The notes below the pieces were generated by a model. That model saw only the letters and a list, made by a program, of their open reading frames with translations. It was not told where the DNA came from and did not search any database. 32,000 nt of DNA, from positions 1,110,001 to 1,142,000 of the forward strand of contig OW818675.1 of NCBI GenBank assembly GCA_942493095.1, in the 5' to 3' direction. Positions 3,587 to 32,000 of the stretch are shown here, piece after piece. This DNA comes from Candidatus Electronema halotolerans. GTDB lineage: Bacteria; Desulfobacterota; Desulfobulbia; Desulfobulbales; Desulfobulbaceae. The translations under genes and the position numbers were made by a program. The first letter of the stretch is position 1; every line of letters begins with the position of its first letter.

Positions 3587-3587
3587 A

Positions 3588-4753: not shown

Positions 4754-4818
4754 TCAGCCATCCTCAGCCAAGCTGCACCGTCCTCTGAAATGCGGCATTT
4801 TTCGTTGAAGGCTCAGGA
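4754..4818. repeat. Direct repeat, copy 2 (65 nt)
   Basis: Same sequence as 1171-1236 minus one a. It lies 15 nt 3' of the TauE/SafE stop codon. Confidence 0.9.
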
Positions 4819-4832
4819 CTGCCTGCTGGAAC

Positions 4833-5735: not shown

Positions 5736-5927
5736 TTGTTAATCCAGCAGCAAGCGCAAAACGTGGGGAATGTCTCTGCCAAGGGATGTAGCAGCACAAT
5801 AAACTGACTACAGGTCAGGCTGCTGAAAGCAGCTTCATCGACCGAGCAGCCGAATCCGCTGAACTCTTCATCTTGATAAATTTTACAGATATTTATGCGG
5901 ACGCAGGCAATGCCATGCTGCCGCGAT

Positions 5928-6101
5928 TCAAGCATTCCTCTCTGGTTTCTTTGGATCAGAAGCGAGAACAACAAGAGCGCCGATCACCGGGGTCAGGAGA
6001 ACGGAGCAGAAGAAATAGCCCCAGAAGCCAAACTTCCGATGTCGGCCCACAAAACCGATTATCACGCAAAGAACAATTAAAATCAAACCTTGCGGGGTCA
6101 T
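5928..6101 (-). CDS. Small membrane protein (57 aa), not in the ORF track
   Basis: The ATG at 6101-6099 overlaps the SPFH stop (ATGA). The translation is MTPQGLILIVLCVIIGFVGRHRKFGFWGYFFCSVLLTPVIGALVVLASDPKKPERNA*, which contains two hydrophobic helices. It falls below the 60-aa track cutoff. Confidence 0.5.
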   Translation of the reverse strand: MTPQGLILIVLCVIIGFVGRHRKFGFWGYFFCSVLLTPVIGALVVLASDPKKPERNA

Positions 6102-7087: not shown

Positions 7088-7103
7088 AACTTTCTGTTTT
7101 GTA

Positions 7104-9322: not shown

Positions 9323-10192
9323 TCAGCGCAATGACTTGACAAGACGAAACCCTAAAAAGCTGTATCGGTCATTCGGATCGTACTTGATGCGGCAGGCGGC
9401 CCGGCAATGCTTGGCATCTGCGCTCCAAGCACCGCCACGGGCAATATGCAGCCGCCCCTGACTGCAAAGCGGATCAACAATGCCTTCACGATAGGTGTCC
9501 GAGACAATCATATCTTTTTTCTCATCCCAGTCGCATTGGTCCAAGCATCGCTCCAGCACATTGCCATGCACATCATGCAGACCCCACCTGTTTGGCCGCG
9601 ACCAGCTGACAGGAAGCGTCTGGTTTCTGTTCACGCCGCTGTTCTGACAGCCCGGCAGCGGATTCACTGCATCATTGAAATTGACCTCTTCTGCTGAAAG
9701 GCAGTCTCCAAAAGCAAAACGGGCATTGCCGCCTGCCCGGCAGGCATATTCCCATTCCGCTTCAGTAGGCAGGCGGCACAGTTCTCCCTCCTCTGCCAGC
9801 CAATTGATAAACGCCTCAATGTCGTGCATGGAAACACAGGTCACAGGATGCTCATCTGTTTGCGCAAACCCCGGAGTCTGCCACGTGCAGGAGGAATTTT
9901 TGCTCCATTCTTCCTCAAACTGGCCACCCGCACCATCACCAAATAAACCAATGGCACCGTCTTCCTTTTCCGCTTGGGTGAGGAAACCGGTCGCATCAAC
10001 GAAACGCCGCCACTGCCCAACTGTCACCGGCGTTGTCTGGAGATAAAAACCTTTGCTCAGTGTAACCTTGTGCAGCAGTTCATCAGCATATCTGCCCACC
10101 TCATCTTCAGGACTGCCCATCATGAAGGTGCCAGGCTGGATATGAACAAATGTCATGTCGAGCCGGTTTTGCAGACTCTTTTCATTGGTCAT
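9323..10192 (-). CDS. FGE-sulfatase (SUMF1/EgtB/PvdO) family protein, paralog 2 (289 aa)
   Basis: Motifs: FVHIQPGTFMMGSP, HKVTLSKGFYLQTTPVTVGQW, HPVTCVSMHD, RLPTEAEWEYACRAG, WGLHDVHGNVLE, RGGAW....CRAA..., LGFRL. I prefer the ATG at 10192, which has AAGGAG at 10199-10204 (6-nt spacer), over the track start at 10252. It overlaps the NRPS B stop by 11 nt. Confidence 0.85.
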   Translation of the reverse strand: MTNEKSLQNRLDMTFVHIQPGTFMMGSPEDEVGRYADELLHKVTLSKGFYLQTTPVTVGQWRRFVDATGFLTQAEKEDGAIGLFGDGAGGQFEEEWSKNSSCTWQTPGFAQTDEHPVTCVSMHDIEAFINWLAEEGELCRLPTEAEWEYACRAGGNARFAFGDCLSAEEVNFNDAVNPLPGCQNSGVNRNQTLPVSWSRPNRWGLHDVHGNVLERCLDQCDWDEKKDMIVSDTYREGIVDPLCSQGRLHIARGGAWSADAKHCRAACRIKYDPNDRYSFLGFRLVKSLR

Positions 10193-13100
10193 TGTTCTCT
10201 CCTTGGTCTGGTGCAAAATATTCAGACAGAATTGCCGTCCAGTTCTCCACATGCGGCGAGAACATCATGCTCATGTGATTTCCTCCGACCCAATGTTCTC
10301 TGACTTCAGCCGTAGTGCATTCAGGCCAGCCTTGGGTCACGAATTCTCTATTGGCCAAGCCGCCGAAGCCGTCAGTTGATTCACTGGCGCAAAACAGATG
10401 AATTGGACAATGAAGATTGCCCGGCATGACATAGACTTGATCTGCCTGGCAGGTGCGCTTATAGACATTGACCATTGCTTTCAGCTCGTCAAGCGAGGTG
10501 TTGGGAGCAAAGATATTGTGCTGCCGGAACAGTTCCATGACATGCTCATACGCAGCCTCCAGATTTCCAAAGGCTTCCAAGTCTTGGACAGAGACGTTCA
10601 AATCTGTCTGCTGTGTTGTCTCAAAGGCATAGACAATATCATGCAGCCAATTATACTCATTGTAAAAGTCCATTTCATCATGTTCGGGCGGCGAGTTCGG
10701 CGCATAGGTGTCCAAGATGGCAAGACCCTGCACCTGCTCTCCTTCCTGCTCCAGCAGCCAAGCCAACTCATAGGCGACTCGTCCGCCAGCAGAATGGCCG
10801 ACTAAGAAGTGCGGACCAGTAATGTGCTGCTGCCGCAGATTCTGCCGATGAAAGAGTGCCAGCTCCTTTAAATCTTGAATTGCAGCAAAGGAGCCGTCCA
10901 AGCCCGGCGATTGCAGCGCATAAACAGGATACATTCCGCCCAAGCTGGAGGCAAGAGAATAAAAATACATGACCGAACCAGTCGCTTCCGGCAGCAGGAG
11001 CATGACACCCTTGCCCGCCTTCCCGCTCCGCAGCGGAATCAGGCAAGAGGAATCATCTGTTCTCCTTTCACGCAGCTGCTCGGCCAGCTCGGCGACGGTC
11101 GGGCTTTTAAACAGGCTGCTGACAGGCAGTTTCAGGTCAAACTGCTGGTGTATCTTGGCCATGAGCTGCAAGGCCAGCAGGGAATGGCCGCCGAGTTCAA
11201 AGAAGTTGTCATGGATGCTGATCCTGCTTTGGTTGAGCACGGCTTCCCAGATGGAAATCAGTTGCAGCTCAGTTGCGTCACGGGCAAATTTTTTCTCCTC
11301 CTGAAGATAGCTGCTCACCTCAAGTAATGCCAGCATGTTGCGGTCAATCTTGCCGCTGGGCGCAATCGGCATGGTCTCAACAACGCAGAAGGCTGCCGGA
11401 ATCATGTAGTCCGGCAAATGCTGCTGCAGCCATGAGCGCATGGCCTGCGTCTCCACCGGACATCGGACGGTGAGATACGCAACAAGCTGGCTGTCCGCTT
11501 CATCCTCTCTCCGCAGCAGGACCACCGCCTCGCTCACCGCCTCATGCTGGCGCAGCACAGCTTCAATCTCACCCAGTTCGATGCGGAAGCCGCGCAGCTT
11601 GATCTGATTGTCAACTCGGCCAATATATTCTATATTGCCATCAGGAAGCCATCTCGCCAAATCGCCGGTCTTGTACACCCGCTGCCGCTCGCCAAGCAGC
11701 TCAAGCGTGACAAACTGTTGTTCCGTAAGTTCAGGCCGGTTCAAATAGCCCCGCGCAAGACTCGCTCCGGCAATGCAGAGTTCTCCAGCAATGCCAAACG
11801 GCTGAATTTGATAATCCGCATTCAGAATATAGAGTTTGGTGTCAGCGGTGGATCTGCCAATCGGCACGGTTGAACAAGTTTCCGGCAGCGGATTGGGCAG
11901 CGTGTAGAGGGATGAGGCAATAACTGCCTCGGTCGGCCCATATTCATTGATGCAGGTCACATTTGGAAAGAGCTGCTGGGTTTTCCGCGCCAAGGCAACG
12001 GGAAAAACATCGCCGGCAAAAATCAGCAGACGCATCCTGTCGAGCTGCCGGGTCACATTTTCAACTTCACACATCTGCTGCCAGTAAGGTGCAGGAATAT
12101 CAACGACTGTGGCTTTTGTTTCATGCAGATATTCAATCAAGTCAAGAGGATTGATCAGTTCTTCCCGCAGCATTATCAAAGCTGCTCCGCCGAGCCATGT
12201 GCAGAAAATCTGTTCAATGGAAGGATCAAAACTTAGCGGCAGAAATTGCAGCACCCTGTCATCGCTGTCTATCCTGTAATAGTCACGCATATAGAGGCAA
12301 TGCAAGGCGATGGGGCCATGCTCCACGCATACGCCTTTTGGCAGTCCGGTTGAGCCGGAAGTATAGATGACATAGGCCAAATCCTCCGGCTTGCTGCGCC
12401 GCTGCGGATTGCCCAGAGCAGCCGCCTGCGCTGCTGTCTTGTCAACATCAATAATAACAAGCTGTTCAAGAGCTAAAAATTTCTCTTTTAACTGTTCTTG
12501 AGTCAGGACAATTTTAGTGCTGCTGTCTTCCAGCATGAAACAAAGACGCTCTGCCGGATAATCTGTGTGCAGCGGCAAATAGGCAGCACCTGTTTTAAGC
12601 ACCGCCAGCAGGGCAATCAGCATGGCCGGTGAACGCTCGACGCAGAGGCCGACTAAGGTGTTTGCCTGCAACCCATGATCTTGAATAAGAGAATGCGCCA
12701 GCGCATTGGCCCTGTCATTGAGCTGCTGATAGGTCAGCTGCTGTTCTTCAGTGATGACGGCAACAGCATGAGGTGTTTCTGCAACTTTGGCTTCAAAAAA
12801 ATCAGCCAATGCCTGCTTGCGTGAATAGGTGCTGGCGGTGTCATTCCATTGCTGAATGCAGCGCGCCTCCTCTGCTGTCAGCAGCGGCAGGGTGCGGATA
12901 TCAGCCTGCGGATTGTCAACTATGCCTTGCAGCAGCACGTCAAAATGTTCTGCCAAACTGATGATTGTCGCCTTGTCAAAAATATCTGTGGCATATTCCC
13001 ACCAGCAGGACAGTTGCTTGTCCTTTGTCACTGCGGTCAGGGTCAGGTCAAATTTGGCCACAGGATATTCAACATCCATGACGCTGACTTCCAAATCCGG

Positions 13101-16100
13101 CAGCGAGAGCGTGGAAACCTCATTATTTTCCAAGGCGAACATTACCTGAAACAAGGGGCTGTGGCGCATGCTGCGCACAGGATGCAGCTCTTCGACCAAA
13201 ATGTCAAAAGGAATGTCCTGATGTGTGTACGCATCCAAACAGGTCTGGCGGGTTGCCCGCAGGAGATCAAGAAAGCTCAGTTTCGATTCCCGCTTTTCAA
13301 GAGTGGCAAAGTTGGTCCGCAGAACCAAGGTGTTGACAAAAAAACCAATCAGATTTTCTGTCTGCTTCTGTGTCCGGTTGGCAATCGGCGTGCCGACACA
13401 GATGTCATCCTGTCCGCTGCACCGGGCAAGCAAAATATTGAAGGCTGCCAATAAGGTCATGAAAAGTGTGGCATTATTCTCCTGACCAAATGCGGCCAGC
13501 TTTTCACTTAATTTCTCAGAAAGCTGAAACTGGCAAACATCACCATGATATTTCCGCTCCTCTGTGCGCGGTCTGTCAAAAGGCAGCTCAATTGCATCAG
13601 GAATGCCTGCCAGCTGTCGTTTCCAATAGTCAACCTGTTCTTGTAGGATTTCACCTTGCAGCCAATCTTTCTGCCATGCCGCATAGTCACTGTAGGCGAT
13701 TTCAAGTCGGGGCAGGACTGGGCGTTCTTCCTGAGCAAAAGCAGCATAGGCCGCCTGCCATTCCTTGACAAAAAGCACCATGGACCAGCCGTCGCTGACA
13801 ATATGGTGCATGTTGAGCAGCAGAACAAACTCTTTTTCATTGAAAAATAAACATTCGGCCCGAAACAGGGCATCCTGCGTCAGGTCAAAAGGTGCAATGG
13901 CGTGCGCATTGACACGTCTTGCCACTTCCTCTTCTTTTTGATCATCAGGAAGACCAGTCAAATCATGAAATTGCAAAAAATCCATCTGCGCAGTTGGCGC
14001 AATGCTGATTTTCGCCTGTCCATTTTGAACATTGAAATAGGTGCGCAGGGTGCTGTGACGCTCCAAGATCAGCATCAGACTTTGCTTGAGAGCACTGGTG
14101 TGCAAATGGCCTGAGAGCTGCAAGGCCAAGGGAATATTATATTGCTCGCTGATGCCGCCCTCAAGCTGACTTAGAAACCATAAGCGCCGCTGGGCAAAGG
14201 AGAGCATCAGCTCCGCATTGTCCGGCTGCATGGCAATTGGCGGCAGGGTGATGGTGTCACGGCAGTCGGCAATCGCGTCAACCAGACCGGAGAGGGTCGG
14301 ATATTCAAAGACCTTGCGGACCGGCAGCTCAACCTGAAACAATTCTCGAACCCGGGCGACCAACTGCATGGCAAGCAGGGAGTTGCCGCCCCGCTCAAAA
14401 AAGCTGTCCTCCCTGCTGACCTGTTCCGCGTTCAGGAGCTTGCCCCACATCGCAGCAAGCAGCTCTTCTTCTTGGGTCAAAGGCTTTGCGCCTTCTGCGC
14501 CGCTTGCTTCCGGCACTGGCAGCGCCTTGCGGTCAATCTTGCCATTCGCTGTCAGCGGGAAGAATTCAATGGCAATAATGTGCTTCGGCAGCATGTAGTT
14601 GGGCAGACGTTCCTGAAGCCAGTCATGCAGTTCTTCAATATTGCAAGAAGCGGCTTGGCTTGTGCAATAGGCGGCTAAAAATTTGCCATTACCATGTCCC
14701 TGCAAAGTGACCAGCGCATCTTCCACTCTTGGATGCTGCCGCAAGGCCGCTTCAATATCGCCCAATTCAATACGGAAGCCATTGATCTTGACTTGGAAGT
14801 CATCGCGGCCTAAAAATTCAACATTGCCGTCGGCAAGATACCGCCCCAAGTCTCCTGTCCTGTACAGACGCTCGCCAGTGCGGGGATGCCTGATGAAACT
14901 GGCCGAAGTTTTTTCCTCATCACCCCAGTAGCACTGGGCCAAGCCAAGGCCGCCAATATACAGACTTCCCGGAACGTGGACTGGGCAAGGTTCCAAAAAT
15001 TTATTGAGCACATGAATCTGCTGATTGCGCAGCGGTCGGCCATAAGGGATGCTTGTCCAAGTTGGATCAACATGAGTAATGGGATAATGAATTGACCAGA
15101 TTGCAGCTTCTGTTGCGCCGCCAAGACTGATCACATCAGCCTGCGGAAACAGTTTCTTGATTTTGTCTGGCAGGCTTGTCGGAATCCAATCGCCGCTCAT
15201 CATGACCAGCCGCAATGAATCAGGAATAAGATCAGACTGTCCGGTAATATAGTCAACATAAATCTGCATCAGGGCAGGAACGGTGTTCCACAGGCTGACA
15301 TGATGCCGAGCCATCATTTTGGCCCAATACGCAGGTTCCTGCGCAAATTCAGGCTGCGGAACAATGACTGTTCCGCCGACGCTGAGAAGACCGAAAATAT
15401 CATAGACAGAAAGATCAAAACTCAGCGACGACAGAGCCAAAATACTGTCATGTTCAGTGACTGAAAAACGCTCATTGATATCGTCAATCGTATTTATTGC
15501 GGAACGATGACTGACCACCACCCCTTTTGGCTGTCCTGTTGAGCCAGAGGTGAAGATGACATAGGCAGTTTCATCAGGATGGATGCTGCTGTTCAGATTC
15601 TCTCCTGAATATGCTGCCAGAAGCAACTCCTCATAATAAACAGTCATGCAGCCTTGCGGCAGTTGCAGCTGTTCTCCAGTGCTTCGAGATGTTATGAGAT
15701 ATTTTGCTCCACTCTGGGCCAAAATTTGTTGAATCCGCTCTGCCGGATAGGTCGGATCAATCGGCAGATAGGCCATGCCAGCCTTGAGAACCGCCAGCAC
15801 ACTGACAATCATTTCGGGCGAACGGGGAAGGCTGACGGCAATAAACGGATTCTTTTCCCGATCAGGCTTGCAGGTGAGAAGATGATGGGCCAGCTGATTG
15901 GACTGCTGATTTAATTGTCTGTAGGTGACAATCTGATCAGCAAAGATAATCGCGGTATTGTCTGGATTTGCCCCAGCCTGCTCTTCAAAGTGATTGAACA
16001 GGGTGCAGTCTGGGACAGCTCCGGCTGTCTGATTCCATATTTGCTGCTGCTGATATTCCTGTTTGGTCAGCATATTCAGCTTGGCAACAGCTTTATCTGG

Positions 16101-17888: not shown

Positions 17889-17950
17889 CTGGAAGTTTTC
17901 TTTATCGCATTAGGAGCGGGTTGAATTTTCTCAGCAACTTCTCTTTCCAA

Positions 17951-19084: not shown

Positions 19085-19195
19085 TTTTTTCTCCTTTTTG
19101 AAAAAAGTTGGCGACTTTGAAAAAGATGAAGGGTGGATGAAAGAGGACAGTTTCAGCTCTCTTTGCTTGTCATGGAGCAAACGCCTCAGCGCATA

Positions 19196-20068: not shown

Positions 20069-20092
20069 TTTTCACCTTTCAAGGTCACAGCA

Positions 20093-23000: not shown

Positions 23001-26000
23001 CCGAAGCATATATCTGTTTTGCTGCTGTACCGGGCAAGTGCCAAGCCCAGCGCAGTTTGCAGCACTGTGTTCAACGTGACTCTCTGCTGCTGGCAGAACT
23101 GCTGGAGCTGCGCAGCAGACTCTGCACCTAACGAGTAACGTATTTTACGGTACTCGGGTTGTAACTTATTGAGTTGTTGTATGGGCAAGAGGGTAGGTTC
23201 TGTAAAACCAGCCAACCGTTCCTGCCAATAGCAGTTTGCGTTTTCAGCATCCTGCTTCTGAAGCCAAGCAATGTATTCCCGGAAAGGCGGCAAGGTCGGC
23301 AGCTGTGGTGTTCTGCCCTGCTTCATGGCCAGATAGCTGCTGCGCACCTCCTCAAAAATTCGTGAAACTGACCAGCCGTCCAGCAGCACATGATGGAAGT
23401 GCATGACAAAAGTGAACTGCTCATCATCTCTGCGGATCAGATCAAAACGAATCAGGGGAGCTTTACTGACAACAAATCCTTTTTTTCGCTCCTGATCTGT
23501 CAGCAGCCGCAGCCGCTCCTTCTGCTGCCCGACAGGCAATTCCCGCCAGTCATGCTCCTGCCAGAAAAGTTTTGCCTTTTTCTCGACAAGCTGTAGCATG
23601 GGCGTATGATCTGTCAGAAACGCGCTGCGCAGAATTGGATGCCGCTCAAGCTGTAGCTGCCATGCCGCTTTGAAGAACAGAGCATCTATATTGCTTAACG
23701 TGCAAAGAAGCTGCTCAAAATACTCCTCGTTTTCAGGCTGATACAGCGTGTGGAACAACAGGCCCTGCTGCATCGGCGTAAGCGGATAGATATCTTGGAT
23801 ATCAGCATATTGTTTGAACAGGCTGTCCAAAGTCGCCTGCGTCACCGAAGCGGCGGGAAAGTCAGACGGCGTGACTCCTTGACGGCCTTGAGCGCAGTGA
23901 TGAACAAGCTCCTGCAAACAGGCAATATAAGCTTGAGCGATTCCCTTGACAGTCTCCGAACGATAGCAGTCGCTGCTCCAGCTCCACGTCAAAGAAAGTT
24001 GGCCCTGCGTCACTGCGCCGTTGATTTCAAGCAGATGACTGCGCGGGCCGGTCATGCTTATTTGGCTGCCGGTCTTCTCTGCGGTCATCGAAAAAGAACC
24101 TGCATCAATCCCTTGATCAAACTGACCAAGATAGTTGAATACAATATCCGCCTTGGGCAGTTTGTGTCCAGCCAGCTCCTTCAGCAGACCATAGCTGATG
24201 CCGTCCTTGGGGATGCGGCGCAGTTGTTCTTTGACTGCCTTGATGACTGCTCCCAGCTCGTTTGCTTGGGGCAGATCAAGCAGCACTGGATACATGGCAG
24301 TAAACCAGCCTGTAGTCCGTGACAGATCAAGTTCCGGGAACAGCCCGACTCGGCCATGTCCTTCCAGCTCAATCAAAGATTGTGAGCTGCCATGCCAATC
24401 CCGCAAGGTCATGGCTAAAGCCGCTAAGAGCAAATCATTGATTCGGGTGTTATAGGCAAGCTGCGCTTCCCGCAGCAGGGTCGAAGTTTTTTTCTCTTCC
24501 AAGCGGACGGTGATTTCCTGCTGATATTCACGCCTGTTTTTTCCGTCTTGGAAATCCATCGGCAGAGGCAGCTCAGGCAGTGCCTGCCAGAAGTGCAGTT
24601 CATCGGCCAGCTCCTGACTGCTGAGATAGCTCTGTAGCCGCATTGACCACGCCTTGAAACTGCTGCTTTTCAGCGGCAGCGAAAGCGGCTGGCCTTGAAC
24701 AAGCTGACTGTAAGCTTTATGCAGGTCTTCCAGCAAAGGCCGCCATGACACGCCGTCAACTGCAAGATGGTGAATGCACCAAAACAGGCGGGTTCGGTCA
24801 GCAGTTTGCAGGAGCGTCAAACGGGTCAGCGGCCCGTGAACAAAATTGAGATTCTGCTGCTGGTCCAAAGTTTTGCTGATCAGCCATTGTTCAGCCTCCT
24901 CTTCTTGGGCAGCGGATCTTTCGATTGTGAAAGGGATTTTTTCTGCTGCTGGCGCATAATATTGCTGCCATGAGCCGTCATGCTGCGAGAAACGCAGCCG
25001 AAGTGCGTCATGATGCTGCAAGACAGCGGCAAAGGCTTGGCGCAGGACATCTGGGTTGAAATCATCAGGAACTGAGAGCAGCACAGACTGGTTGAAATGA
25101 TGCGGTTCTGGCTGCTCCTGAGCAAAAAACCAATGTTGCGCTGGCGTGAGCGGCAGCTCGCCGCTGACTAAACCTTGCTCGGCATCAATATCAATAAGCA
25201 CCCCTGCTTGCGCAACTTTAGCCAGCTCGGCAATGCTTTGATGCTCAAATAGATGATGCACGGCAAGCTGAATTCCGGCCTTGCGGGCGCGGGTGACAAC
25301 TTGGATGCTGAGGATGGAATCGCCGCCCAGCTCAAAAAAGTTGTCGTGAATGCCGATGCTGCGCTGTTTAAGCAGTGCGCCCCAGATTTCCGCCAGCGTC
25401 TGCTCAATCTCGTTGCGCGGCAGGGAAAAATCTCCCGCGTCAAAGGTCAACTTTGGTTTTGGCAGGGCTTTTCTGTCAATCTTGCCGTTGGCGGTCAGCG
25501 GAAAGGTTTTCAGAGGCATCAGATAGTTTGGCACCATGTAGTCTGGCAAACGCTCTTTCAGCCAAGTGCGGAGCTGGCCACTCTCCAAACACGGATCGCT
25601 GGCAGTAAAATACGCAGCAAGATGCCTGCTGTCGCCCTCATCATGCACAGCAGTCAGAGCCTCTCTGACCGCCGGATGCTGGCGGAGGCAGGCTTCAATC
25701 TCGCCCAGCTCAATGCGGAAGCCTCTGATTTTGACTTGGAAGTCGTCGCGGCCAAGGAACTCGATGCTGCCGTCCGGCAGCCAGCGGCCAAGGTCGCCGG
25801 TGCGGTAGAGGCGTTCGCCCGCGCGCGGATGGATGATGAAGCTGGTTGCGGTTTTTTCCTCGTCATTCCAATAGCATCGCGCCAGGCCGCTGCCGCCGAT
25901 ATAAAGCTGTCCCGGCACATTGACCGGGCACGGCTCCAGCGCGCTGTTGAGCACCTGCCAGCTCTGGTTGCGCAGGGCCTTGCCATACGGAATGCTTTTC

Positions 26001-29000
26001 CAAGCCGGATCAACGTGGTCAATCGGGTGCCAGATTGACCAGATGGAGGCTTCGGTGGCCCCGCCGAGACTGATGACCCGCGCCTGCGGCCAGACAGTGC
26101 TAATGCGCTCCGGCAGATTGAGCGGAATCCAGTCGCCGCTCATCATGACCAGCCGCAGCGATTCAGGGCGCAGGGCCGCCTGCCCCTCGACGTGATCGGC
26201 GTGAATCTGCATCAGGGCCGGGACGCTGTTCCAGACCGTCACCTTATGGCGATTTGACAGCTCGGCCCAATGCGTCGGCTCCTTGGCTTTTTCCTGCTCA
26301 GGCATGACCACTGCGCCGCCAGCGGCGAGCAGGCCGAAGATGTCATAAACCGACAGGTCAAAACTCAATGAAGACAGGGCCAGCACCCGGTCATTTTGGC
26401 CAACGGCAAAGCGTTCGTTGATATCTAAGATGGTGTTGGCCGCGCCACGATGGCTGATGGCCACGCCCTTGGGCAGGCCGGTCGAGCCGGAGGTGAAGAT
26501 GATGTAGGCCAGATCATCCGGCTGCGTTGCGGCAGCCGGTTTTTCCGGCGGAAATGCGGCTAAGTCGAGTTGCTCTACGGTCAGCGCATGAACGTTTTCC
26601 GGCAGTTCCAGACTGTCCGCAACCCGCTGATGGGTGATCATGCTGCCTGCGCCGCTGCCCTCCAGAATGCGCTGGATGCGCTCCGCCGGATAGTCAGGAT
26701 CAACCGGCACATAAGCGGCCCCGGCCTTGAGCGCGGCCAGCACGCTGATGATCATCAGCGGTGACCGCTCCAGAGCGACCGCAACCAAGGGCTGCCTGCT
26801 TGTTTCTGTTTTTATTGCCAGAAGACAGTGCGCGAGCCGACAGGCCTGCTCATCAAGCTGCTGATAGGTGAGCTGCTCGTCTTTGTGAATGAGGGCCACA
26901 TTGTCCGGCGATGCCGCAGCCTGCCGCTCGAACAGGTCAAGCAGGGTGCAGTCAGGCGCAGGCCCAGTCTCCGGCGCGCTCCACTGCTCCAGCTGCTCCA
27001 GCTCGGCCGCAGTGAGCATGGGCAGCCGACTGACCGACTGACGCGGATCTGCGGCTATGCCTTGCAGCAGGATCATGAAATGCCCGCTCATGCGGATAAT
27101 GCTGGCTTCGCTGAAGATATCCGTGGCGTATTCCCACGTGCAGCGGAGTCGGCCCTCCGAATCATCAACAAAGAGGGTCAGGTCAAATTTGGCAATCGGA
27201 TATTCGCTGTCATGAATTTTGGCTTCAAGACCTTGCAGCTCCAATGAAATTTCATCCTGAACAGCGAGCATGACCTGAAAGAGCGGGGCATGGCTCATGT
27301 TCCGGCTTGGCTGCAGCTGCTCGACCAGCATCTCAAAGGGAATGTCCTGATACGCATAGGCCGCCAGACAAGTTTGCCGGACAGCGTGGAGCAGCCCGCT
27401 GAAGGACTGCTCCGGCTCAAGATGGGTGCGCAGCACAAGCGTGTTGACAAAAAAACCAACCAAATCTTCAGTTTGCCTGTGCGTCCGACTGGCAATCGGA
27501 CTGCCGACGCAGATGTCGTCCTGACGGCTGTAGCGAGACAGCAGGATGCTGAAGGCGGCGAGCAGGGTCATGAACACAGTTGCGCCTTCCTGCCTGCTCA
27601 AGTCAGCAACTGCCTGACTGATCTCCGACGGCAGCAGATGGGTGTAATGCGCGCCGCGATATGACTGACGCGCAGGCCGCGCTTTATCGGTCGGCAGCTC
27701 CAGCAGGTCCGGGATGCCGTCAAGCTGTCGCTTCCAGTAATCGACCTGCCGCTGGAGGACTTCGCCTTGCAGCCAGCCGCGCTGCCAGACCGCAAAATCA
27801 CCGTATTCAAGGGCCAGCGGCGGCAGGCCCGGCTCTTCCTCATTCAGGAAGGCGGCATAAGCGTGCTGCAGATCGCGCAGGAGAATGCCGATTGACCAGC
27901 CGTCGCTGACAATATGGTGCATGTTTAGCAGCAGAACGGCCCGCTCCGCCTCGGTCCGCAGCAGGACTGCCCGGAACAGCGGACCGCTCGCCAGATCAAA
28001 AGGGGCGACAGTATGCTCATAAAGCTGGGCGACGATTTCCTGCTCCAGCACGTCGCCGTCAAGATGACGCAAATCTGCAATCTGAAGACAGGGCGCATCC
28101 TCTGCCGGGCGCAGTTCCGCACGGGGTCGGCCATCCTCGGCGGCAAAAATCGTGCGCAGCGAGGCATGACGCTGCCGCAGCCAATGCAGGCTTTTTTCCA
28201 ATGCAACTGCGTTCAAGCCGCCAGTCAGCGCAAAGGCCAGCGGCATGTTGTAGGCGGCGGTCTTGTTTTCCTCAAGCTGATCAAGGAACCAAAGCCGCTG
28301 CTGGGCGAACGAGAGCTGTTTCCGCGCGGCATCCGGCTGCGCGGTGATCGGGGGCAGGCTGACTGAACCGGCGGCTGCGCGGACCACCGCCGCCATCTCA
28401 CGGAGCGTCGGATGCTCAAAAATCGCGCGCACCGGCAGCTCAGTCTGAAAAGTCTCCCTGATGCGGGAGACAAGCTGCATGGCGAGCAGGGAATTGCCGC
28501 CCCGCTCAAAGAAGCTGTCCTCCCTACTGATCTGCTCCGCATTCAGAAGTCCTGCCCAGACAGCGGCCAGCAGCTCCTCGTCCGGGCTGACCGGCTTCAG
28601 CCCCTCCTGTTCAGCGGTCAATTCCGGCTCCGGCAATGCGTTCCGGTCGAGCTTGCCATTGGCAGTCAGCGGCAGCGCGTCAAGAAGACAGTAATAGGCG
28701 GGCACCATGTAGTCCGGCAGGGCCTGCTGCGCCGCCGCCTTCAGCTCGGCTGTCAGTGACGGAGCCGCCGCATCCGCAGTGACATAAGCGGCCAAATATT
28801 GCTGTCCGCCGCCGCCCCAGACTTTTGCCACCACATCTCTGACCGCCGGATGCTGGCGGAGGCAGGCTTCAATCTCGCCCAGCTCAATGCGGAAGCCTCT
28901 GATTTTGACTTGGAAGTCGTCGCGGCCAAGGAACTCGATGCTGCCGTCCGGCAGCCAGCGGCCAAGGTCGCCGGTGCGGTAGAGGCGTTCGCCCGCGCGC

Positions 29001-32000
29001 GGATGGACGATGAAGCTGGCTGCGGTTTTTTCCTCGTCATTCCAATAGCATCGCGCCAGGCCGCTGCCGCCGATATAAAGCTGTCCCGGCACATTGACCG
29101 GGCACGGCTCCAGCGCGCTGTTGAGCACCTGCCAGCTCTGGTTGCGCAGGGCCTTGCCATACGGAATGCTTTTCCAAGCCGGATCAACGTGGTCAATCGG
29201 GTGCCAGATTGACCAGATGGAGGCTTCGGTGGCCCCGCCGAGACTGATGACCCGCGCCTGCGGCCAGACAGTGCTGATGCGCTCCGGCAGATTGAGCGGA
29301 ATCCAGTCGCCGCTCATCATGACCAGCCGCAGCGATTCAGGGCGCAGGGCCGCCTGCCCCTCGACGTGATCGGCGTGAATCTGCATCAGGGCCGGGACGC
29401 TGTTCCAGACCGTCACCTTATGGCGATTTGACAGCTCGGCCCAATGCGTCGGCTCCTTGGCTTTTTCCTGCTCAGGCATGACCACTGCGCCGCCAGCGGC
29501 GAGCAGGCCGAAGATGTCATAAACCGACAGGTCAAAACTCAATGAAGACAGGGCCAGCACCCGGTCATTTTGGCCAACGGCAAAGCGTTCGTTGATATCT
29601 AAGATGGTGTTGGCCGCGCCACGATGGCTGATGGCCACGCCCTTGGGCAGGCCGGTCGAGCCGGAGGTGAAGATGATGTAGGCCAGATCATCCGGCTGCG
29701 TTGCGGCAGCCGGTTTTTCCGGCGGAAATGCGGCTAAGTCGAGTTGCTCTACGGTCAGCGCATGAACGTTTTCCGGCAGTTCCAGACTGTCCGCAACCCG
29801 CTGATGGGTGATCAGGCGGTTTGCGCCGCTGCCCTCCAGAATGCGCTGGATGCGCTCCGCCGGATAGTCAGGATCAACCGGCACATAAGCGGCCCCGGCC
29901 TTGAGCGCGGCCAGCACGCTGATGATCATCAGCGGTGACCGCTCCAGAGCGACCGCAACCAAGGGCTGCCTGCTTGTTTCTGTTTTTATTGCCAGAAGAC
30001 AGTGCGCGAGCCGACAGGCCTGCTCATCAAGCTGCTGATAGGTGAGCTGCTCGTCTTTGTGAATGAGGGCCACATTGTCCGGCGATGCCGCAGCCTGCCG
30101 CTCGAACAGGTCAAGCAGGGTGCAGTCAGGCGCAGGCCCAGTCTCCGGCGCGCTCCACTGCTCCAGCTGCTCCAGCTCGGCCGCAGTGAGCATGGGCAGC
30201 CGACTGACCGACTGACGCGGATCTGCGGCTATGCCTTGCAGCAAAATTTCAAAGCGTTCAGCAATGCGGGCCACTGTCTCTTTTTCAAACAGGTCAGCAG
30301 CATACTCCCAGCGGCAGAGGAGCTGATCACCTTTGCCCTCCACGCTTAAAGTCAGATCAAATTTCGCCGCCGAGTTGCCAGTTTCCAAAAAATTGACCTT
30401 CAGCTCCGGCAGGGCCAAGTCTGGAACTTCGTTGTTTTGCAGGACAAACATGACCTGAAAGAGCGGGCTGTGACTCATGCTCCTGACAGGCTGCAGCTCC
30501 TCCACCAGTATTTCAAAGGGAATGTCCTGATGGGCATAGGCGGAGAGACAGGAGCGGCGGACCGCCCTGAGCAGCTCATTGAAGGACTGCTCAGGTGCTG
30601 TTTGGGCGCGCAGCACCAAGGTGTTGACAAAGAAGCCGATCAAATCCTCGGTCTGACTGTGCCGCCGTCCGGCAATCGGGCTGCCCACGCAGATGTCGTT
30701 CTGACCGCTGTGCCGGGCCAGCAGGACATTGAAGGCGGCGAGCAGCACCATGAACAGTGTTGAACTTTGCTCCCTGCTTAGGTCGGCAAGGCTTTGGCTC
30801 AGTGCCGGCGGCAGCGGACGGATGTGCTGGCCGCCCTGAGAGCTGCGTCTGGAAGGGCGGGGCTTGTCGGTCGGCAGTTCGAGCAGCTCCGGCACTCCGG
30901 CCAGCTCCCTGCGCCAGTAATCGACCTGCTGCTCCAGAATCGGACCATGCAGCCAGCTCCGCTGCCAAGCCGCATAGTCAGGGTATTCAATGGTGAGTTC
31001 CGGCAGAGCGGACTCTTTATTTTGGCTGAGGGCGGTGTAGGTCTCCTGCCAGTCCCGGAGAAAAATGGCCATGGACCAGCCGTCGCTGACAACATGGTGC
31101 ATGTTGAGGAGCAATACCGACCGCTGCTCATCCAGCAGCAGACAGGCGGTTCTGAAGACCGGCCCCTGCGCCAGATCAAACTGCGCGGCAGCATGAGCGT
31201 CTGTCTGTCTGATGACTTCCGCCGCCTGCATGTCCTGATTCAGGCTCCGCAGGTCATGCAGCTCCAAGGCAAACATCTCTTCAACCTGTTTGATCGTGGT
31301 GTATGGCCTGCCATCCTGCATGACAAAGCAGGTGCGGAGGCTGGCATGACGCTCCACCATCAAGCGCAGGCTCTGCTCCAGCAGACGCAGGTCGAGCCTG
31401 CCCTGCATTTCCAAGGCAATAGGGATGTTGTAGGCAGGGTTGCTCTGCTCGTCAAACTGATCCAAGAACCAGAGCCGCTGCTGGGCAAAAGAGAGCTGCT
31501 CAAGGTCTTGCGCCGATTTTTTGCTGATCGGCGGCAGGCAGGGCGTTCCTGCGGCCTGCTCAATGGCGGCGGCCAAGTCTTTGAGCTGCGGATTGCTGAA
31601 CACGGCCCGGAGCGGCAGCTCGACCTGAAAGCTTTCCCGGATGCGGGAAACTAACCGCATGGCGAGCAGCGAATTGCCGCCCAGATCAAAAAAATTGTCA
31701 CTGCGGCCCACAGCACCGCATCGCAATAAATCAGCCCACAACTCAGCCAAAAGCTCTTCTTCCGGGCCGAGAGGATGTTCCTCGCTGCTCTTGCTGCTGA
31801 GTTCCGGCTCAGGCAGGGCCTTGCGGTCAATTTTGCCGTTCGGAGTCAGCGGCATGGCCTCCATGAGAATGAATGCCGCCGGAACCATGTAGTCCGGCAG
31901 GGTCTTCTTGATGAAAGCGCGCAGCTCCGCAGGCAGCTGCAGCCTGTCCGCGTCCTCCTGATACGGGGTGTTGGCATAGCTGGGCCAAAGTCTTGGCGCG
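20093..32000 (-). CDS. Non-ribosomal peptide synthetase A, 3' 11.9 kb (5' end beyond the right edge): ..A-tail-T-C-A-T-C-A-T-E-C-A(core)-MT
   Basis: The track ORF 20093..31888 begins at an internal Met inside an A9 motif. The frame stays open to position 32000 (..APRLWPSYANTPYQED..LPDYMVP). Domain motifs were read directly. GC is 62% in the 29101-29200 sample. Confidence 0.95.
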   Translation of the reverse strand, partial: APRLWPSYANTPYQEDADRLQLPAELRAFIKKTLPDYMVPAAFILMEAMPLTPNGKIDRKALPEPELSSKSSEEHPLGPEEELLAELWADLLRCGAVGRSDNFFDLGGNSLLAMRLVSRIRESFQVELPLRAVFSNPQLKDLAAAIEQAAGTPCLPPISKKSAQDLEQLSFAQQRLWFLDQFDEQSNPAYNIPIALEMQGRLDLRLLEQSLRLMVERHASLRTCFVMQDGRPYTTIKQVEEMFALELHDLRSLNQDMQAAEVIRQTDAHAAAQFDLAQGPVFRTACLLLDEQRSVLLLNMHHVVSDGWSMAIFLRDWQETYTALSQNKESALPELTIEYPDYAAWQRSWLHGPILEQQVDYWRRELAGVPELLELPTDKPRPSRRSSQGGQHIRPLPPALSQSLADLSREQSSTLFMVLLAAFNVLLARHSGQNDICVGSPIAGRRHSQTEDLIGFFVNTLVLRAQTAPEQSFNELLRAVRRSCLSAYAHQDIPFEILVEELQPVRSMSHSPLFQVMFVLQNNEVPDLALPELKVNFLETGNSAAKFDLTLSVEGKGDQLLCRWEYAADLFEKETVARIAERFEILLQGIAADPRQSVSRLPMLTAAELEQLEQWSAPETGPAPDCTLLDLFERQAAASPDNVALIHKDEQLTYQQLDEQACRLAHCLLAIKTETSRQPLVAVALERSPLMIISVLAALKAGAAYVPVDPDYPAERIQRILEGSGANRLITHQRVADSLELPENVHALTVEQLDLAAFPPEKPAAATQPDDLAYIIFTSGSTGLPKGVAISHRGAANTILDINERFAVGQNDRVLALSSLSFDLSVYDIFGLLAAGGAVVMPEQEKAKEPTHWAELSNRHKVTVWNSVPALMQIHADHVEGQAALRPESLRLVMMSGDWIPLNLPERISTVWPQARVISLGGATEASIWSIWHPIDHVDPAWKSIPYGKALRNQSWQVLNSALEPCPVNVPGQLYIGGSGLARCYWNDEEKTAASFIVHPRAGERLYRTGDLGRWLPDGSIEFLGRDDFQVKIRGFRIELGEIEACLRQHPAVRDVVAKVWGGGGQQYLAAYVTADAAAPSLTAELKAAAQQALPDYMVPAYYCLLDALPLTANGKLDRNALPEPELTAEQEGLKPVSPDEELLAAVWAGLLNAEQISREDSFFERGGNSLLAMQLVSRIRETFQTELPVRAIFEHPTLREMAAVVRAAAGSVSLPPITAQPDAARKQLSFAQQRLWFLDQLEENKTAAYNMPLAFALTGGLNAVALEKSLHWLRQRHASLRTIFAAEDGRPRAELRPAEDAPCLQIADLRHLDGDVLEQEIVAQLYEHTVAPFDLASGPLFRAVLLRTEAERAVLLLNMHHIVSDGWSIGILLRDLQHAYAAFLNEEEPGLPPLALEYGDFAVWQRGWLQGEVLQRQVDYWKRQLDGIPDLLELPTDKARPARQSYRGAHYTHLLPSEISQAVADLSRQEGATVFMTLLAAFSILLSRYSRQDDICVGSPIASRTHRQTEDLVGFFVNTLVLRTHLEPEQSFSGLLHAVRQTCLAAYAYQDIPFEMLVEQLQPSRNMSHAPLFQVMLAVQDEISLELQGLEAKIHDSEYPIAKFDLTLFVDDSEGRLRCTWEYATDIFSEASIIRMSGHFMILLQGIAADPRQSVSRLPMLTAAELEQLEQWSAPETGPAPDCTLLDLFERQAAASPDNVALIHKDEQLTYQQLDEQACRLAHCLLAIKTETSRQPLVAVALERSPLMIISVLAALKAGAAYVPVDPDYPAERIQRILEGSGAGSMITHQRVADSLELPENVHALTVEQLDLAAFPPEKPAAATQPDDLAYIIFTSGSTGLPKGVAISHRGAANTILDINERFAVGQNDRVLALSSLSFDLSVYDIFGLLAAGGAVVMPEQEKAKEPTHWAELSNRHKVTVWNSVPALMQIHADHVEGQAALRPESLRLVMMSGDWIPLNLPERISTVWPQARVISLGGATEASIWSIWHPIDHVDPAWKSIPYGKALRNQSWQVLNSALEPCPVNVPGQLYIGGSGLARCYWNDEEKTATSFIIHPRAGERLYRTGDLGRWLPDGSIEFLGRDDFQVKIRGFRIELGEIEACLRQHPAVREALTAVHDEGDSRHLAAYFTASDPCLESGQLRTWLKERLPDYMVPNYLMPLKTFPLTANGKIDRKALPKPKLTFDAGDFSLPRNEIEQTLAEIWGALLKQRSIGIHDNFFELGGDSILSIQVVTRARKAGIQLAVHHLFEHQSIAELAKVAQAGVLIDIDAEQGLVSGELPLTPAQHWFFAQEQPEPHHFNQSVLLSVPDDFNPDVLRQAFAAVLQHHDALRLRFSQHDGSWQQYYAPAAEKIPFTIERSAAQEEEAEQWLISKTLDQQQNLNFVHGPLTRLTLLQTADRTRLFWCIHHLAVDGVSWRPLLEDLHKAYSQLVQGQPLSLPLKSSSFKAWSMRLQSYLSSQELADELHFWQALPELPLPMDFQDGKNRREYQQEITVRLEEKKTSTLLREAQLAYNTRINDLLLAALAMTLRDWHGSSQSLIELEGHGRVGLFPELDLSRTTGWFTAMYPVLLDLPQANELGAVIKAVKEQLRRIPKDGISYGLLKELAGHKLPKADIVFNYLGQFDQGIDAGSFSMTAEKTGSQISMTGPRSHLLEINGAVTQGQLSLTWSWSSDCYRSETVKGIAQAYIACLQELVHHCAQGRQGVTPSDFPAASVTQATLDSLFKQYADIQDIYPLTPMQQGLLFHTLYQPENEEYFEQLLCTLSNIDALFFKAAWQLQLERHPILRSAFLTDHTPMLQLVEKKAKLFWQEHDWRELPVGQQKERLRLLTDQERKKGFVVSKAPLIRFDLIRRDDEQFTFVMHFHHVLLDGWSVSRIFEEVRSSYLAMKQGRTPQLPTLPPFREYIAWLQKQDAENANCYWQERLAGFTEPTLLPIQQLNKLQPEYRKIRYSLGAESAAQLQQFCQQQRVTLNTVLQTALGLALARYSSKTDICFGVMISGRNASLAGIEDMVGMLINALPFRLQIDNSLSGSELLQHVQELHQADSRHGFSSLVDIQEQSELAQDEALFETLLAVENFPRGDNEATADESYRIEQMWSQNATSFPLTIMVDPGETADFYLLHDSCRINAESIDRFWGHLRTLLAALISAPEQPVGQLDMLTQPELAQIQQWNAPETGPVPDCTLLDLFERQAAASPDSAALIHKNEQLTYQQLDQQACRLAHCLLAIKTETSRQPLVAVALERSPLMIISVLAALKAGAAYVPVDPDYPAERIQRILEGSGAGSLITHQRVADSLELPENVRTLTAEQLDLTAFPPEKPAVATQPDDLAYIIFTSGSTGLPKGVAISHRGATNTILDINERFAVGQNDRVLALSSLSFDLSVYDIFGLLAAGGAVVMPEQEKAKEPTHWAELASRHQVTVWNSVPALMQIYAEQIEGNAALRLVMMSGDWIPLNLPERISTVWPQAQTISLGGATEASIWSIWHPIDHVDPAWKSIPYGKALRNQSFHILDEKLSPCPLLVPGQLYIGGIGLAQCYWGDEEKTAASFIIHPRTGEHLYRTGDLGRWLPDGSIEFLGRDDFQVKIRGFRIELGEIETAICRHPLVKEATVIAHDEIDGKRLLAYFVPESESKKKKTGSAKGEMSWLNDTVEKILSLKPERLLEISCGIGAFSSCIAPSCQQYIGVDFSQLLQEQRNAADAFQGIENGSVDVIAMNAVIQYFPSVDYCISVLEKAMEAVSPGGSIFIGDIRNFKLLEAFHASVQLHQAEDSLPLSVLRQHIQKAVQEEEELFIDPDLFKAIHQEFPRIKNVQIQLKAGAGQNEMNRFRYDVILRLDQEPEQPETIWLDWQEQDVNLSNIAQLLAENRSFAIKNIPNARLSAEKHLLAQLHNAEGTVKELRNSLRQREQGIDPDELCRLADQANFACIISYDSPYHYAVAFCRKDMSETATTEESFLFKKTWHHFA
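20096..21103 (-). other. NRPS A domain: SAM-dependent methyltransferase inserted after A8; the ORF ends inside or at the end of this insert
   Basis: Motifs: EMSWLNDTVEKIL, LLEISCGIGAF (motif I), YIGVDFS, VDVIAMNAVIQYFPS, PGGSIFIGDIRN, LLEAFHASVQLHQA, NEMNRFRYDVIL, ending ..KKTWHHFA*. About 336 aa lie after ..AYFVPE. GC is 38% in the 20101-20200 sample. Confidence 0.75.
21104..22447 (-). other. NRPS A domain: A3 core (A1-A8), Cys-type code; lacks A9/A10
   Basis: Motifs: LSSLSFDLSVYDIFG, VWNSVPALM, MMSGDWIP, ISLGGATEASIWS, and GRDDFQVKIRGFRIELGEIE at 21200-21259. Confidence 0.8.
21200..22480. repeat. Third, more diverged copy of the same A-core repeat (A3)
   Basis: Long identical runs with copies a and b (for example ccgacaggtcaaaactcaatgaagacagggccagcacccggtcatt). 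There is a 5-codon deletion (..EGNAALRLVMM.. versus ..EGQAALRPESLRLVMM..). Similarity ends at the A8 motif. The boundaries are approximate. Confidence 0.7.
22514..23797 (-). other. NRPS A domain: C3 (DCL-type, follows E)
   Basis: YPLTPMQQGLLFH, HFHHVLLDGWS. Confidence 0.8.
23873..25171 (-). other. NRPS A domain: epimerization (E)
   Basis: PLTPAQHWFF; CIHHLAVDGVSWR with the HH codons at 24767-24772; EGHGR; FNYLGQF. Confidence 0.8.
25205..25420 (-). other. NRPS A domain: T3 (PCP, E-partner type)
   Basis: DNFFELGGDSILSIQV. Confidence 0.8.
25457..26953 (-). other. NRPS A domain: A2, Cys-type code
   Basis: The protein is identical to A1 from A1 through A8 except at about 5 residues. A9 is LPDYMVP and A10 is NGKIDR. 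Confidence 0.8.
25663..27069. repeat. Intragenic 1407-bp repeat, copy b (A2 core plus C-A linker)
   Basis: A base-by-base comparison with 28837-30243 at an offset of exactly 3174 bp finds 7 mismatches (25834, 25846, 26102, 26641, 26644, 26646, 26647). Confidence 0.9.
27020..28318 (-). other. NRPS A domain: C2 (LCL-type)
   Basis: LSFAQQRLWFLDQ, MHHIVSDGWS. Confidence 0.8.
28373..28588 (-). other. NRPS A domain: T2 (PCP)
   Basis: DSFFERGGNSLLAMQL. Confidence 0.8.
28631..30127 (-). other. NRPS A domain: A1, Cys-type code
   Basis: Motifs: LSSLSFDLSVYDIFG, VWNSVPALM, MMSGDWIP, ISLGGATEASIWS, LPDYMVP, NGKLDR. The code read by eye is DLYNMSLIWK. Confidence 0.8.
28837..30243. repeat. Intragenic 1407-bp repeat, copy a (A1 core plus C-A linker)
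   Basis: See copy b. Identical spurious plus-strand track ORFs (25920/29094, 26570/29744, 26828/30002) show the same 3174-bp offset. Confidence 0.9.
30194..31498 (-). other. NRPS A domain: C1 (LCL-type)
   Basis: LSFAQQRLWFLDQ, MHHVVSDGWS. Confidence 0.8.
31553..31777 (-). other. NRPS A domain: T1 (PCP)
   Basis: DNFFDLGGNSLLAMRL. Confidence 0.8.
31808..32000 (-). other. NRPS A: A9-A10 tail of an upstream module whose body lies outside the window
   Basis: ..RLWPSYANTPYQEDADRLQLPAELRAFIKKTLPDYMVPAAFILMEAMPLTPNGKIDRKALP. Confidence 0.75.

Follow-up and report, generated by a model that had tools for sequence, protein, structure and literature searches.

A predicted cysteine-rich peptide assembly line with a divided adenylation-methyltransferase domain in the cable bacterium Candidatus Electronema halotolerans

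We analysed a stretch of 32,000 nucleotides from Candidatus Electronema halotolerans (assembly GCA_942493095.1, contig OW818675.1, positions 1,110,001 to 1,142,000 of the forward strand; hereafter the window, in whose numbering all positions are given), which carries two nonribosomal peptide synthetase (NRPS) genes on the minus strand, nrpsA and nrpsB. Ca. Electronema halotolerans is a cable bacterium with a closed 3.2-Mb genome in which the cluster genes are annotated as hypothetical or generic; the nrpsB product corresponds to CAK8715745.1 (exact protein look-up). The best overall explanation, which we hold as a whole with moderate confidence, is that the cluster is a co-oriented, tightly packed operon encoding a two-protein, six-module NRPS whose product would be the colinear hexapeptide X0 - L-Cys - D-Cys - L-Cys - L-Cys - probably a cationic residue. 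The first residue, X0, would be activated by an adenylation (A) domain that is interrupted by a methyltransferase (MT) and lies just outside the window. The third Cys module would operate in trans, with nrpsA contributing the A-domain core (core motifs A1 to A8) and a decayed MT that probably serves as a docking scaffold, and nrpsB contributing the carrier (T) domain and the remainder of the Asub subdomain, namely core motif A9 and core motif A10, which holds the catalytic Lys. A terminal thioesterase (TE) would release the peptide, and an ABC exporter would probably carry it out of the cytoplasm. A radical S-adenosylmethionine (radical-SAM) protein and two proteins of the formylglycine-generating enzyme (FGE) fold would act as tailoring or accessory factors. 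The run of four cysteines would have arisen by A-domain-sized gene conversion in a family with a Cys-Cys core.

To our knowledge, no characterised nonribosomal peptide contains four consecutive open-chain cysteines, and none was found in our literature searches. A product of this kind would, if the prediction is true, amount to a powerful reagent for thiol, redox or soft-metal chemistry. The literature searched described no NRPS of a cable bacterium, a group noted for unusual nickel-sulfur chemistry. What appears new here is the poly-Cys prediction, a trans-split A-MT domain that is conserved and encloses tailoring genes, the host lineage and a recurrent radical-SAM partner; the product and its role are predictions.

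Substrate codes, domain order and origin of the four-cysteine run

Four motifs, LSSLSFDLSVYD, WN[ST]VPALM, MMSGDWIP and SLGGATEA[SA]IWS, each occurred exactly four times in a regular-expression search of the translations, three times in nrpsA and once in nrpsB, in agreement with the four shared motif sets listed by the first-pass annotation of this DNA. Alignment of the A domains to the GrsA-PheA pocket segment with MAFFT gave the code DLYNMSLIW(K) for A1, A2, A3 and A4, which reproduced the GrsA-numbered code DLYNMSLIWK read earlier. This code is listed among Cys-activating codes (PMC12283262). It is one conservative residue apart from the classical code DLYNLSLIWK, which the A3 domain of the relative Ca. 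Electrothrix aestuarii carries exactly. By single-stretch score, the closest solved A domains were BmdB (408 bits), FmoA3 (391 bits), the 'Peptide synthetase' 8xjz (385 bits), TioS (340 bits) and PchE (311 bits); BmdB and PchE are Cys-activating, and the closest solved domains belong to the Cys-type clade. The earlier Cys-type assignment is upheld by the catalogued code and by BmdB as closest solved relative, and A1 to A4 are predicted to activate Cys. The last A domain, A5, has three acidic residues in its pocket, and its second-best solved relative is ApnA-A1, which activates Arg/Tyr (399 bits). Because the pocket is acidic, the A5 substrate is probably cationic.

Pfam matches comprised four Condensation, three AMP-binding and three PP-binding domains and one methyltransferase in nrpsA, and two Condensation, two AMP-binding and three PP-binding domains and a thioesterase in nrpsB. 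Together with the motif map, they describe a modular type I NRPS with repeated condensation (C)-A-T modules, core motifs and a terminal TE. The catalytic motifs of all C, A, T, epimerisation (E) and TE domains were intact in this map, which also bore out the domain order X-Cys-Cys(E)-Cys(MT)-Cys-A5-TE that had been proposed from the DNA.

The first-pass annotation had called the upstream C domains ordinary rather than of the heterocyclising (Cy) type, and our results support this. We found six HHxxxDG motifs (MHHVVSDGWS, MHHIVSDGWS, IHHLAVDGVS in the E domain, FHHVLLDGWS, THHIASDGWS and MHHIVSDGWS), so that HHxxxDG is present in all five C domains and the E domain. A regular-expression search of the nrpsA and nrpsB translations returned no Cy-type DxxxxDxxS motif, and Pfam gave no match to an oxidase (Ox)/nitroreductase domain in the NRPS proteins. 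Both marks of a heterocyclising module are missing, and C1 is LCL-like. In the ranking of matches to the Protein Data Bank (PDB), C1 scored 345 bits against Txo2 and 287 bits against TycC6, compared with about 125-130 bits against the DCL domains TycB1 and SrfA-C and only 54 bits against the Cy domain of BmdB. C3 was DCL-like, with 319 bits against McyB, 317 against PvdL, 209 against SrfA-C and 208 against TycB1, while LCL domains stayed below 90 bits. Dual E/C, modAA and Cy types were considered for the C domains and rejected, since in the PDB ranking C1 groups with domains of the LCL type and C3 with those of the DCL type.

The second Cys module contains a genuine E domain, which scored at least 300 bits against each of the E domains of PvdL, TycB, TycA, BacC and GrsA. 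It is preceded by a T domain with GGDSI and followed by the DCL-type C domain, the arrangement that marks a D-residue, so that the D-configured position claimed earlier is supported. From the four codes and the C and E types, with no Cy domain among them, L-Cys, D-Cys, L-Cys and L-Cys are therefore predicted without heterocyclisation. The earlier claim of four consecutive cysteines is thus matched by domain logic (four Cys codes, no Cy or Ox domains), and the cysteines would be incorporated open-chain, not as thiazolines. Compared with the heterocyclising systems BmdB, PchE/PchF, HMWP2 and EpoB, the assembly line shares the A-domain clade and the specificity code (BmdB 408 bits, PchE 311 bits), but it lacks their Cy (DxxxxD) and Ox domains, and C1 scores 54 bits against the BmdB Cy domain versus 345 bits against an LCL domain.

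We also compared the A domains with one another and with those of related loci, named here L004, L005/L006 and L052, the last from Ca. Electrothrix aestuarii (CP159373.1, at about 1.037-1.065 Mb). The A1 and A2 cores were 99.5% identical in nucleotides over 1408 bp (25662-27069 versus 28836-30243), and A3 was 87.5% identical to both over 1318 bp; the flanking C domains were about 73% identical. At the protein level, A1, A2 and A3 of the window showed 90-99% mutual identity but only 62-68% identity to any relative. A4 was 74-80% identical to its positional orthologues and 63-64% identical to A1-A3. Tandem duplication of whole modules was rejected as the origin of A1 and A2, since only the A core is 99.5% identical and the flanking C domains are at about 73%. 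These findings indicate that A1-A3 were homogenised by A-domain-sized gene conversion, not by module duplication, and the locus is a clean example of how such conversion reshapes product composition. At the D-position, L004 and E. aestuarii have a non-Cys A domain with an acidic pocket (DAEDMGRVTK and DVEDIGAITK). Two Cys modules are visible in L004 and E. aestuarii, in which A1 lies outside the view, and at least three in L005. The predicted run of four cysteines thus holds for the window, but it appears lineage-specific within a variable family, with A1-A3 as conversion copies; Cys-Cys would be the family core.

A third cysteine module encoded on two genes

One feature of the third Cys module had been missed by the first-pass annotation. 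The nrpsA reading frame stops after the MT insert (...WHHFA*), and nrpsB opens with MNTCTSVWSRYANTP followed by LPHYMVP and NGKIDR (core motifs A9 and A10) and then a carrier domain. A3 is thus split over the two genes, and its halves are separated by FGE1 and the radical-SAM gene. When the ends of nrpsA and nrpsB were fused in silico, the result was colinear with TioS A4a-M4-A4b (5wmm), in the order core motif A8, MT, core motifs A9-A10. A3 has its MT between core motifs A8 and A9, as in MT-interrupted A domains, and its parts are distributed as in a trans-split A domain, with the A core and an N-methyltransferase (nMT) on one protein and core motifs A9-A10 with the T domain on the other.

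The same break was found in four related loci (L004, L005/L006 and L052), each with the radical-SAM gene in the gap. The nrpsB side begins with a conserved start peptide, MNTC..WSRYANTP, in the window, L004, L005/L006 and L052, and the split loci have intact open reading frames (ORFs) that encode about 2560 aa and 4750-4930 aa. The radical-SAM protein is 73% identical to that of the window in L004 and 70% in L005/L006; that of L052 belongs to a 90% cluster whose representative is 70% identical. FGE1 is also in the gap of L004 and L005/L006, and E. aestuarii is without it.

A published precedent exists in corallorazine biosynthesis, in which the split Crz1/Crz2 pair (A-nMT on one protein, Asub-T on the other) was active in vitro only with both halves (PMC11342130). 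As in the window, the A domain of Crz1/Crz2 is split between core motifs A8 and A9 after an nMT insert, and the Asub remainder with the T domain opens the next ORF. The window differs in the FGE1 and radical-SAM genes between the halves, in specifying Cys and not Gly, in its degenerate MT, and in assembly line and host. Because of the corallorazine precedent, the A3 split is most likely functional. Given the conservation of the split and the same precedent, the MT remnant is probably a docking scaffold or interface between nrpsA and nrpsB. The locus adds a second, naturally occurring and conserved case of a trans-split A-MT domain, here with two tailoring genes wedged in, and it bears on NRPS engineering at the A8/A9 junction.

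Methylation of the third cysteine, which had been claimed from the presence of the MT, fared worse. Compared with the full MTs of the orthologues L004 and E. aestuarii, the window MT lacks 42 N-terminal residues, including the GWNSSYTG block, and 17 residues after motif I (59 in all). Its motif I reads EISCGIG, with a G->S change, versus EIGCGKG in L004 and EIGCGTG in L052, so that the window has no complete MT with an intact SAM-binding motif I. In L005, about 110 MT residues are gone, motif I among them. With these deletions, the motif I change and marginal Pfam matches, the methylated position is therefore doubtful, and N-methylation at the third Cys was probably lost in the E. halotolerans lineage.

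At the other end of nrpsA, the tail of A0 (window 31790-32000, minus strand) carries the element W.SYANTP.Q..LPDYMVP, which also occurs behind the MT of the split module. The nrpsA orthologues in L052 (4934 aa) and L005 (4751 aa) begin A-MT-T. From the shared element and these orthologues, the first module is therefore probably MT-interrupted too.

A close parallel is the thiocoraline/quinomycin type (TioR/TioS). Both have Cys-type A domains behind non-Cy C domains, one Cys epimerised to D and cysteines kept open-chain, the latter two by prediction in the window; in TioS (5wmm) an N-MT lies between core motifs A8 and A9 of a Cys-type A domain, and the window A3-MT is colinear with it. Only the window shows four consecutive Cys, a decayed MT and an A domain spread over two proteins. 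It also differs in encoding no MbtH partner, in its FGE-fold and RaSEA-like radical-SAM genes and in its host, a cable bacterium of the Desulfobulbaceae.

Tailoring candidates and competing explanations for the product

The earlier claim that two FGE-family genes and one radical-SAM gene accompany the NRPS was confirmed by Pfam, but neither FGE protein has the catalytic Cys pair. The fold itself is clear (PF03781, E-values 1e-52 and 9e-50). Both proteins fall far below every curated NCBIfam cut-off, the best being PvdO with 136 bits versus 500, and PvdO was also the best PDB match of the FGE-fold protein (94 bits). At the position of human FGE C336, FGE1 has Tyr (alignment) and FGE2 has Ala (by eye). 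Twelve FGE2 orthologues showed no conserved Cys pair in that loop, the C341 equivalent being Ser in three. We rejected canonical FGE chemistry (Cys to formylglycine) on the grounds that the C336/C341 pair is absent and not conserved; the FGE-fold genes are therefore no evidence for formylglycine chemistry. PvdO, CalU17 and ToxD likewise have the FGE-sulfatase fold without the FGE Cys pair and are encoded with secondary-metabolite genes. PvdO is periplasmic, whereas FGE1 and FGE2 show no evident N-terminal signal peptide by eye (a predictor was not used) and lie far below the PvdO family cut-off. FGE2 was seen in L052, in a further related locus, L055, and probably in L004, and not within the examined part of L005; FGE partners of the radical-SAM protein are confined to the closest clade. 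Two small ORFs (187 and 153 aa), with hydrophobic N-termini and no Pfam match, take the place of FGE1 in E. aestuarii (L052 8408-9514).

The radical-SAM protein has invariant cysteines 62, 71 and 74 and a PF04055 match, which place it in the superfamily, and an extra C-terminal Cys cluster. It scored 196.3 bits against TIGR01210 (RaSEA), below the cut-off of 212.15, and NCBIfam gave no SPASM-type or anSME match. Its sole PDB sequence match was queuine lyase 6p78. The AlphaFold2 model (pLDDT 93) matched radical-SAM folds in Foldseek with a best TM-score of only about 0.5 (Elp3, TsrM, HydE). An anSME-like enzyme or a true RaSEA was rejected on these grounds (no SPASM/anSME match, TIGR01210 below cut-off, no close Foldseek neighbour). 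The protein resembles the RaSEA/queuine lyase/Elp3-YhcC group in its best family match (TIGR01210), PDB match (6p78) and nearest fold (Elp3), but it differs from RaSEA in its sub-threshold score, its NRPS/PKS (polyketide synthase) context instead of tRNA modification and its C-terminal Cys-rich region. It lies inside the operon in all four related loci, and NRPS/PKS clusters in Sorangium, Bacillus thuringiensis, Paenibacillus and numerous metagenomic contigs contain homologues of 40-55% identity, frequently with a class I/II aminotransferase as partner. The clade thus appears to be a recurrent natural-product tailoring enzyme, with NRPS/PKS clusters from at least four phyla, and the locus gives this RaSEA-like clade a defined context.

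The cassette of a TIGR01210-like radical-SAM gene and a class I/II aminotransferase gene recurs in L001, L053, L054, L007 and L014; in L007, L014 and L053 its neighbours are NRPS/PKS genes, and in L001, L053 and L054 a P-type ATPase gene precedes it. L001, labelled Ca. Thiomargarita nelsonii, encodes at 2471-7236 a P-type ATPase, the radical-SAM protein, the aminotransferase and a group II intron reverse transcriptase. Its radical-SAM protein shares a 90%-identity cluster with a 'Desulfobulbus sp. TB' protein, and the contig may be Desulfobulbaceae DNA in a Thiomargarita assembly. Literature searches on TIGR01210, on FGE with NRPS and on cable bacteria or Thiomargarita with NRPS found nothing relevant. 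They also gave no characterised product family that matches the cluster, in keeping with the first-pass annotation, which could name none for this combination.

Several observations weigh against the proposed hexapeptide. Only the last approximately 70 residues of the A0 module are visible, and the module count comes from orthologue lengths. The substrate calls derive from a 10-residue code and sequence relatedness, and FmoA3 (6lta), the second-best solved relative, activates alpha-methyl-L-serine. Motif scans found no MbtH-like protein and no phosphopantetheinyl transferase encoded in the window. MT decay and A-domain homogenisation can also be read as relaxed selection, and with two tailoring gene families in the operon the released product may have fewer than four thiols. 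Free thiols or metal binding in the final product are pure conjecture on our part.

In the alternative that we take most seriously, although it is clearly less probable than the main reading, Cys would be incorporated as predicted and later altered, either through the action of the radical-SAM and FGE-fold proteins or through oxidation, spontaneous or enzymatic, so that the mature product is no free tetrathiol. Disulfides, thioethers, dehydroalanine or desulfurised residues would be possible outcomes. Such processing has precedents, as the Cys-containing nonribosomal peptides thiocoraline, triostin, romidepsin and malformin end as disulfides or thioacetals. The alternative is favoured by the retention of the radical-SAM gene in the operon of all four related loci, of FGE1 in two of them and of FGE2 in L052, L055 and probably L004, by the recurrence of radical-SAM relatives in NRPS/PKS clusters (Sorangium, Paenibacillus, Bacillus, metagenomes), and by PvdO, the best PDB match, whose NCBIfam entry, 'dihydropyoverdine dehydrogenase', names it as oxidatively maturing an NRPS product. 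However, no chemistry can be assigned to the tailoring proteins. The FGE catalytic Cys pair is absent, the best TM-score of the radical-SAM model is only about 0.5, and FGE1 is missing in E. aestuarii.

It is unlikely that the 'Cys-type' A domains activate another substrate, such as serine, alpha-methylserine, S-methylcysteine, selenocysteine or 2,3-diaminopropionate, in which case the poly-thiol prediction would be wrong. FmoA3, which activates alpha-methyl-L-serine, scores near the Cys-activating BmdB (391 versus 408 bits), and the A4 positional orthologues in L004 and L052 carry N278D (DLYDMSLIWK), showing that the pocket drifts. All four window A domains nevertheless match a code catalogued as Cys-activating at 10 of 10 positions, and they are one conservative residue from the DLYNLSLIWK that E. 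aestuarii A3 has exactly.

We consider it quite unlikely that the cluster is a decaying or non-functional relic in which two foreign genes broke the A-MT domain, the MT is eroding and the repeats are homogenising. The GC contents of FGE1 and the radical-SAM gene (0.45 and 0.42) are below those of the NRPS genes on either side (0.51-0.57), the MT has deletions, and in L004 a truncated nrpsA tail is followed by a gene fragment. But the window holds unbroken reading frames of about 11.9 kb and 7.7 kb, the split and the start peptide are kept in at least four lineages at 60-80% amino-acid identity, the C, A, T, E and TE domains retain all their catalytic motifs, and corallorazine offers a functional precedent for exactly such a split. 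At the truncated end of the L004 nrpsA orthologue, a 64-aa ORF (8655-8849) ends with ..GGFHCATLDVRRRGELQSYA; it resembles an amidinotransferase C-terminus and is probably a gene fragment.

Very unlikely, in our judgement, is a soft-metal ligand, that is, a thiol-rich chelator or chaperone for nickel, copper, zinc or arsenic, possibly tied to the Ni-bis(dithiolene) fibres of cable bacteria through nickel supply or capping. The host is a cable bacterium, whose fibres contain an oligomeric Ni-bis(dithiolene) complex with no biosynthetic route described in the paper, and the model of the fibre authors includes terminal S-S bonds with cysteine thiols (PMC13534509). Our literature searches found no biosynthetic genes for these fibres. 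An ABC exporter lies in the conserved operon, and in E. aestuarii a P-type ATPase gene follows FGE2. Against this, in a collection of 5.8 billion proteins the radical-SAM and FGE2 orthologues fell into only some eight clusters at 90% identity, and the named cable-bacterium species among them numbered just two (E. halotolerans and E. aestuarii), a sporadic pattern and not a clade hallmark. Beside these two species there were fragmentary NRPS matches in Electrothrix metagenome-assembled genomes. Presence across genomes does not mark the cluster as a core trait of cable bacteria, and its distribution among them appears sporadic. Between two and four Cys modules are present, depending on the locus, and cysteine thiolates are not dithiolenes. 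Among the P-type ATPases near the radical-SAM paralogues, that of L053, the sole one inspected by eye, shows no obvious CPx metal motif. A link between the cluster and the nickel-sulfur wires is thus speculation of very low probability, and we regard as most improbable its specific form, in which the exported peptide is a dedicated nickel-thiolate ligand that would carry Ni for the periplasmic Ni-bis(dithiolene) fibres or supply them with capping or cross-linking thiols.

Locus layout and neighbouring genes

The genes of the proposed operon run in the order nrpsA - FGE1 - radical-SAM gene - nrpsB - FGE2 - ABC exporter - SPFH, all on the minus strand, with intergenic gaps of -11 to 111 bp (Table 1); leaving aside the overlap of FGE2 with nrpsB, they measure 16-111 bp. 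Pfam identified two FGE-sulfatase genes and one Radical_SAM gene beside the NRPS genes. The nrpsA frame is open to base 31999, and the ATG at 31888 is therefore not its start. The conserved operon reaches downstream to about 6098 (FGE2, ABC exporter, SPFH), and L055 keeps FGE2 together with the ABC exporter and Band-7 genes. A TauE gene (4833-5735) lies 362 bp beyond SPFH and is not among the genes conserved with the cluster.

Table 1. Features of the NRPS locus in window coordinates
Feature	Position	Strand	Remarks
nrpsA	20093..32000	(-)	5' end beyond window; (A0 A9-A10)-T-C1-A1(Cys)-T-C2-A2(Cys)-T-E-C3-A3(Cys, A1-A8 only)-MT remnant-stop
C1	30170..31522	(-)	LCL-type, MHHVVSDGWS; PDB ranking
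A1	28610..30142	(-)	DLYNMSLIWK (predicted Cys)
A2	25439..26968	(-)	DLYNMSLIWK (predicted Cys)
Epimerisation domain	23900..25222	(-)	IHHLAVDGVSW; preceded by T domain with GGDSI
C3	22520..23902	(-)	DCL-type, FHHVLLDGWS; PDB ranking
A3 core	21197..22459	(-)	core motifs A1-A8; DLYNMSLIWK
Decayed N-methyltransferase insert	20096..21142	(-)	nrpsA C-terminus; weak Pfam Methyltransf_23/12/11; colinear with TioS 5wmm
FGE1	19196..20068	(-)	290 aa, FGE-fold
Radical-SAM enzyme	17951..19084	(-)	377 aa; start 19084 as called in NCBI and Logan
nrpsB	10182..17888	(-)	2568 aa; (A3 A9-A10)-T-C4-A4(Cys)-T-C5-A5-T-TE; starts MNTCTSVWSRYANTP
C-terminal piece of split A3	17679..17888	(-)	encoded on nrpsB; LPHYMVP = core motif A9, NGKIDR = core motif A10
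A4	14514..16025	(-)	DLYNMSLIWK (predicted Cys)
A5	11285..12830	(-)	DPEDIAEIAK
Thioesterase domain	10260..11000	(-)	GHSAGG; Pfam
FGE2	9323..10192	(-)	289 aa, FGE-fold; start overlaps nrpsB stop by 11 nt
ABC exporter	7104..9260	(-)	fused permease and ATPase; ~200-aa N-terminal extension
SPFH/Band-7 protein	6098..7087	(-)	last gene conserved with cluster

The N-terminal extension of the ABC exporter (about 200 residues) had no Pfam match. The best NCBIfam matches of the exporter, all below cut-off, were the thiol-reductant exporter CydC/CydD and NHLP-type bacteriocin exporters. GC content was 0.449 in FGE1 and 0.415 in the radical-SAM gene versus 0.51-0.57 in the flanking NRPS genes and 0.615 in the ABC exporter; the related loci from Electrothrix-like genomes have 40-43% GC overall. 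The FGE1 and radical-SAM cassette may have a history different from that of its flanks.

Adjoining the cluster, beyond TauE, is a three-gene island of 30-32% GC (window 1588-4631, minus strand). Two of its ORFs (527 and 140 aa) had no family match, and the remaining gene encodes a McrB-like AAA protein that matches the REase_II models of PADLOC. The island is probably a horizontally acquired restriction or defence module.

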